Source: Escherichia coli (GTDB lineage: Bacteria > Pseudomonadota > Gammaproteobacteria > Enterobacterales > Enterobacteriaceae). From it: a stretch of 64,000 nt of DNA. The stretch lies in assembly GCF_041886205.1 (NCBI RefSeq), contig NZ_CP169030.1. One strand, 5' to 3'. A program made the translations under genes and the position numbers. Below are positions 6,970-7,557 of this stretch, piece by piece (positions within the stretch are counted from its first letter, which is position 1; each line of letters starts with the position of its first letter). The notes under the pieces were generated by a model that was given only the letters and a program-made list of their open reading frames with translations, was not told where the DNA came from and searched no databases.

Positions 6970-6998
6970 GCCTCCTCTCTCTGATGGAGGCTTTTTTT
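6970..6998 (+). terminator. Rho-independent terminator-like hairpin (GCCTCC…GGAGGC + T7), plus-strand orientation
   Basis: Perfect 6-bp stem followed by seven T; overlaps finO stop. Confidence 0.4.
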
Positions 6999-7557
6999 AT
7001 TTCTCATCAAGCACGGCCTGAAGTTCTGCCTTTATCCGGTTCTGGCGGCGGATTTTATCCAGACGCTCTGCCGCATACGCTTCCTCCTCCTGAGAAATAT
7101 GCTCCGTCACATACCCTTCCGTGTCATACCGGCAGGCACCGGCTTTCATGGCACACAGATAGCTTTCTGAACGGGTGATGGCCTTCAGCGCCCTGCGCAG
7201 TTTTTTATGCGAGAGCGGGATATTCCGCTGCGCCACGTCTTCCAGTAACACGTCCCGGATACCGCAGGCCAGAAGCCGGGGCGTGTCACCGTCAAATAAT
7301 CCCGGCCACCAGGGCTTCAGGGTGTTCACGGCATCATCCAGCGTGGGCAGATTCAGATAAATGGACAGCGCCTGTCTGGCCTGCGCTTTTTTTGCCGCCA
7401 GCTCTGCTTCCCGGGCGGCTTTCTCGGCCAGCTTCTGCTTTTTCACCTTCCACTTTGGTGGCGTGGTGACATTGATGATGGTTTTCCGGCTGCGGACAAG
7501 CGTCTCCCCTTCTGTCTTCCGCTTCAGTGTCAGTACCGGTCGCTTCTGCTCTGTCAT
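6997..7557 (-). CDS. finO: FinO fertility-inhibition RNA chaperone (intact)
   Basis: 186 aa matching recalled F-like FinO ([17 protein letters not shown]…); not interrupted by IS3 as in F. Confidence 0.93.

Follow-up and report, generated by a model that had tools for sequence, protein, structure and literature searches.

FinO is an RNA chaperone that stabilises FinP and promotes formation of the FinP–traJ duplex, and nearly all natural F-like plasmids are finO+. By the established mechanism, pairing of FinP with the traJ leader prevents translation of TraJ. FinO guards FinP from RNase E and aids duplex formation, and without TraJ the traY promoter (PY) is inactive, leaving the tra operon switched off in most cells (PMC5102898, PMC7690428). 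The F plasmid is derepressed solely through the insertion of IS3 into finO (PMC5102898, PMC7690428), the other group-A MOBF12 plasmids examined are all finO+ (PMC5102898) and repressed (PMC5102898, PMC7690428), and deletion of finO from a natural F-like plasmid raises tra expression about 100-fold (PMC12491478). IS3-free forms of F have also been described in E. coli K-12 WG1 and NCM3722, and their authors read transfer as regulated (PMC9997739).

The locus presented here lies on a 64,000-nucleotide stretch of Escherichia coli plasmid DNA (the window), which we compared with F using the plasmid of E. coli K-12 EMG2 (NZ_CP099589.1; F: AP001918 / NC_002483) as the reference. Positions 4234–7165 of the window are 99.8% identical to F and positions 7157–42006 are 99.2% identical, and the sole structural difference in the compared segments is the 1258-bp IS3 of F with its flanking GCT duplication. 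The features in and next to finO and the extent of the tra region are as follows.

6997–7557, minus strand: finO coding sequence, 186 aa, TAA stop included (open reading frame, Pfam, and comparison with PDB 1DVO, R100 and F)
7162–7164, minus strand: site of the IS3 insertion in F (GCT, codon Ser132), empty in the window finO (junction comparison with F, EMG2 NZ_CP099589.1)
7558–7611, minus strand: traX–finO intergenic gap of 54 nt, without orf286 (alignment with F and R100)
7612–8358, minus strand: traX, the final tra gene before finO (Pfam TraX; 100% identical to F TraX over 248 aa)
7612–39842, minus strand: complete tra region, traM to traX (33 F Tra/Trb proteins aligned)

The finO frame runs uninterrupted from ATG to TAA on the minus strand and encodes a 186-residue product in which FinO_N (PF12602) is matched at residues 1–62 with 128.9 bits (cutoff 25, E 7e-38) and the ProQ/FinO domain (PF04352) at residues 74–177 with 93.6 bits (cutoff 27, E 9.5e-27). 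This product is identical at 148 of 152 positions (97%) to the crystallised FinO fragment in PDB 1DVO and, ungapped, at 179 of 186 positions (96%) to FinO of R100. On either side of the IS3 site, and at the traX–finO junction, F has the same sequence; its finO is interrupted at codon 132 by the 1258-bp IS3 with a GCT target duplication, whereas the corresponding site in the window is empty; when IS3 and one GCT are removed from F finO in silico, all 561 of 561 nucleotides agree with the window gene. The product therefore belongs with FinO, since both Pfam domains lie above their gathering thresholds, the gene is full-length without truncation or insertion, and the traI–traX–finO order on the minus strand places it distally in the tra operon, after traX. 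The sequence-only reading had held that this finO is complete where that of F is broken by IS3, a claim borne out by the 186-residue frame, the two domains and the unoccupied IS3 site. A longer, 203-residue, GTG-initiated open reading frame extending to 7608 was considered as the real finO product and rejected, because the alignments with Pfam FinO_N and with R100 FinO both begin at the ATG at 7557. The FinO domain is held in common with ProQ and RocC (PDB 5NB9, 7RGS, E about 1e-5), chromosomal global RNA binders that are distant relatives and that, unlike the window FinO, are without the FinO_N region.

The antisense partner of this system and its target lie at the other end of the tra region.

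39266–39344, plus strand: FinP antisense RNA, 79 nt (Rfam RF00107, fold, terminator-like site, same as F)
39231–39259, plus strand: putative finP promoter, TTGACG-17-TACGAT, 7 nt before the FinP 5' end (consensus scan)
39273–39377, minus strand: traJ mRNA 5' UTR, 105 nt, with FinP-complementary stem-loops and a GAGGAGG ribosome-binding site (Rfam RF00243, fold)
38583–39272, minus strand: traJ coding sequence, 229 aa, the tra operon activator and FinOP target (100% identical to F TraJ)
39382–39410, minus strand: traJ promoter-like site (PJ), GTGACA-17-TATATT (consensus scan, 10/12 matches; same as F)

FinP is matched over the whole of its Rfam model (positions 1–76 of 76) at 97.3 bits (gathering score 45; E 1.7e-18), and it is resolved into a first stem-loop (SLI, 39270–39299), a GACA spacer (39300–39303), a second stem-loop (SLII, 39304–39338) and a GAUUUU tail (39339–39344). 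Its minimum free energy of −37.6 kcal/mol (z = −6.5) was equalled by none of 200 shuffles, and SLII together with the T-run was scored as an intrinsic terminator. Opposite FinP, the traJ 5' UTR is matched by RF00243 at 39267–39377 on the minus strand with 124.8 bits, and the scores of both RNAs are far beyond chance. FinP is complementary to nucleotides 34–112 of the traJ mRNA, a segment that runs through the GAGGAGG ribosome-binding site and 7 nt into the traJ coding sequence, so that the traJ ATG (39272–39270) falls within the overlap. The Rfam score, the two stem-loops with their spacer and U-rich tail, and the location opposite the traJ ribosome-binding site and start codon together identify this RNA as FinP. 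The earlier statement that finP and its stem-loops are present opposite the traJ leader is thus correct as to presence and in error as to place, as the interval 6997–7557 to which it was attached contains finO alone and finP lies 32 kb away. A GATC (Dam) site at 39257–39260 shares bases with the -10 hexamer of the putative finP promoter, and Dam methylation regulates finP transcription in pSLT.

Across 37041–40187 only two bases separate the window from F, 38539 in the traJ–traY intergenic region and 39551 in traM, and therefore finP, the finP promoter, the traJ leader, PJ and the traJ coding sequence are base-identical to the characterised F versions; traM and the traY promoter region are each one base off. 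The FinOP components are F's own, with finO being that of F without IS3, save for PY base 38539. Each of the 33 F Tra/Trb proteins from TraM to TraX is encoded full length and ungapped at 98.6–100% identity, and a search for frameshifts, insertion sequences and premature stops in the FinOP components and the tra genes found none. The window thus combines traM, traJ and traY with a complete F-type tra operon and a MOBF relaxase, as in FinOP-regulated group-A transfer regions. Within this otherwise uniform region TraI (8381–13648) is the most diverged Tra protein (98.7% identity to F), and the DNA of the traX–traI segment is 98.5% identical to that of F, compared with 99.8% beyond finO, a pattern that suggests a recombination patch.

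R100 and R6-5, which represent the reference repressed system, provide a second point of comparison, with the same gene order, finO distal in tra, FinO proteins 96–97% identical to that of the window and the same mechanism of a FinP antisense RNA assisted by a FinO chaperone, although the traJ/finP allele and the PY sequence of R100 differ from those of the window. By this mechanism, FinP would be made constitutively from 39266–39344 on the plus strand and would pair with the traJ leader over its ribosome-binding site and start codon. FinO would bind SLII and the 3' tail of FinP, keep RNase E from cutting it within the GACA spacer and speed FinP–traJ duplex formation. Translation of traJ would be blocked by this FinO-aided pairing, so that TraJ would not be made and the TraJ- and ArcA-dependent PY would stay silenced by H-NS, with pili and transfer expected in only a small fraction of cells. 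We infer from the sequence that finO and finP are expressed and that the phenotype is repressed. This reading, which had been put forward earlier as the likely state of the plasmid, is well supported because finO, finP, the traJ leader and the full tra set are intact, and traJ itself and PY are likewise present. We put at roughly 0.85 the probability that the window, as part of an F-type (MOBF12 group A) plasmid, encodes classical FinOP fertility inhibition in working order.

The alternative that survives best concerns the one FinOP-related base in which the window departs from F. We assigned the elements of PY from the sequence itself and by their likeness to the PY map of R1 (PMC7303359).

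38514–38590, minus strand: PY (traY promoter) region
38589–38572, minus strand: ArcA boxes (GCGTTAA/GTGTTAA), by analogy with R1
38564–38550, minus strand: TraJ-site inverted repeat TAGACtttccGTCTA, by analogy with R1
38549–38544, minus strand: -35 element TTTACC, by analogy with R1
38529–38521, minus strand: TG and AAACAT, by analogy with R1

The ArcA-box and TraJ-site motifs located in this way are present and the region is the same as in F save for one spacer base. At this position, 38539, about 25 nt before the inferred start, the tra strand has A in place of C, a departure seen neither in F nor in four close relatives. An alignment of R100 PY was too divergent to inform on this base. The difference is not a sequencing error, because 10 plasmid records carry the same base; these are a minority, 10 of the 1091 plasmids with this PY type, and at least two of them also have an annotated finO. 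On the tra strand the variant creates TAGACT-18-TATGAT, a sigma-70-like site with 9 of 12 consensus matches that the F-type sequence does not have and that overlaps the TraJ-binding inverted repeat as placed by analogy with R1. In R1, a two-base improvement of the PY -35 element yields a constitutive promoter independent of TraJ and ArcA (PMC7303359), and therefore a point change in PY can in principle bypass FinOP. FinOP could accordingly be intact and yet partly bypassed, with TraJ-independent basal tra transcription from the 38539 site and transfer above that expected of a finO+ plasmid. We regard this as improbable, as a consensus match is no evidence of function, the PY region is AT-rich and silenced by H-NS, and position 38539 lies in the spacer of the native promoter, outside its hexamers. 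The allele also persists in natural plasmids that vary in size and source (10 of 1091, at least two with an annotated finO), which is better explained by a neutral or mild effect. The more specific proposition that the allele is a functional sigma-70 promoter giving basal, TraJ-independent and FinOP-insensitive tra expression despite an intact finO appears more doubtful still; if it were true, there would be a natural lineage of F-type plasmids with a FinOP-insensitive basal level of tra expression.

A second alternative is that the finO reading frame is intact but ineffective, for example through poor expression without orf286 or a promoter of its own, leaving the plasmid derepressed like F. 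In R100, traX and finO are separated by a 286-residue open reading frame, orf286, with an alpha/beta-hydrolase annotation, whereas the window and F have only the 54-nt gap, which is the F/ColB2 arrangement. A simple consensus scan of 6800–8700 found no sigma-70-like promoter for finO, and with no promoter-like site nearby its expression therefore depends on upstream transcription. Work by van Biesen and Frost in 1992 reportedly showed that orf286 raises finO mRNA and that plasmids without it repress tens-fold rather than hundreds-fold, and the absence of orf286 may thus bear on the strength of finO expression. ColB2-type plasmids, which have finO without orf286, still repress transfer 20–50-fold, and this argues against an ineffective gene. 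So do the sequence of finO, which is without degenerative change and 96–97% identical to proven FinO proteins, and the prevalence of the same traX–finO arrangement: at least 5000 plasmid records match the traX–finO region, and among the matches listed at least 4298 cover at least 80% of this 2.2-kb region. We consider loss of finO function very unlikely. A functional FinOP system remains our preferred reading, and because finO directly follows traX without orf286, its repression is probably moderate rather than maximal.

Least likely of all is that the plasmid is unable to transfer through a defect outside FinOP, which would make its regulation moot: the leading region beyond oriT is mosaic and without an end-to-end database match, but support for a non-transferring plasmid was sought and none was found, the 33 tra/trb products are full length at 98.6–100% identity to F, and the oriT–traM–traJ–traY segment up to 40187 differs from F only at 38539 and 39551.

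The remainder of the window is an F-like backbone with RepFIA repE, sopAB, an IncFII-type repA with CopA, and two hok/sok loci. Near-identity to F stops abruptly at about 40188, beside oriT, and the leading region (40188–56000) is mosaic and diverges from that of F; a megablast of 40100–47000 against PLSDB and E. coli RefSeq returned no record covering more than 74%, and the position of the break fits recombination at oriT. A window-specific insert at about 42006–44549 contains a two-gene cassette (43067–43716, minus strand) that is absent from F and encodes a 112-residue protein with a weak, sub-cutoff Pfam match to a RelE-like toxin and a 104-residue antitoxin of HTH/MqsA type, probably forming a type II toxin–antitoxin module. 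At the other end of the window an IS66-family element (transposase 294–1865, accessory open reading frame 2232–2909) adjoins the IncFII-type repA open reading frame (3175–4071), and this replicon may be altered because the repA frame matches only positions 60–200 of a 275-position Pfam profile. CopA RNA is found at 4592–4682, and the hok/sok-type loci, recognised by the Rfam sok model on the minus strand, lie at 5488–5644, adjoining the RepFIC region, and at 45854–46025 in the leading region. Rfam also identified the plus-strand antisense RNAs AS-traI (10723–10799, barely above its gathering score), AS-traG (20092–20177), AS-pc01 (53240–53339) and AS-pc02 (6642–6754), which were first described on plasmid pHK01.

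Besides F itself, close relatives of this transfer region are the IS3-free F plasmids of the K-12 strains WG1, NCM3722 and LS5218 (CP099591, CP011496), which are 67 kb in size, have an intact finO and are 99.9% identical to the window across traX–finO. They share its F-type traJ/finP allele, and those of WG1 and NCM3722 are 99.9% identical to the window in the traJ region. The IS3-free F plasmids have G at 38539 and A at 39551, where the window has T and G. The F-type allele is itself widespread, with 727 records at least 99% identical across the traY–traJ–traM region, and the locus is an unremarkable example of a very common type of FinOP system whose biology is textbook material.

In summary, our comparison indicates that the tra region of the window is the F transfer region as it stood before IS3 entered, finO+ and carried on a mosaic IncF plasmid. 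With FinOP intact, transfer is predicted to be low at steady state and to rise in transient bursts in new transconjugants; pilus burden and sensitivity to male-specific phages should both be low, and the window plasmid should repress a co-resident F. The locus leaves current understanding of FinOP unchanged and is mildly useful as a natural reference for the finO–tra region of F before IS3.
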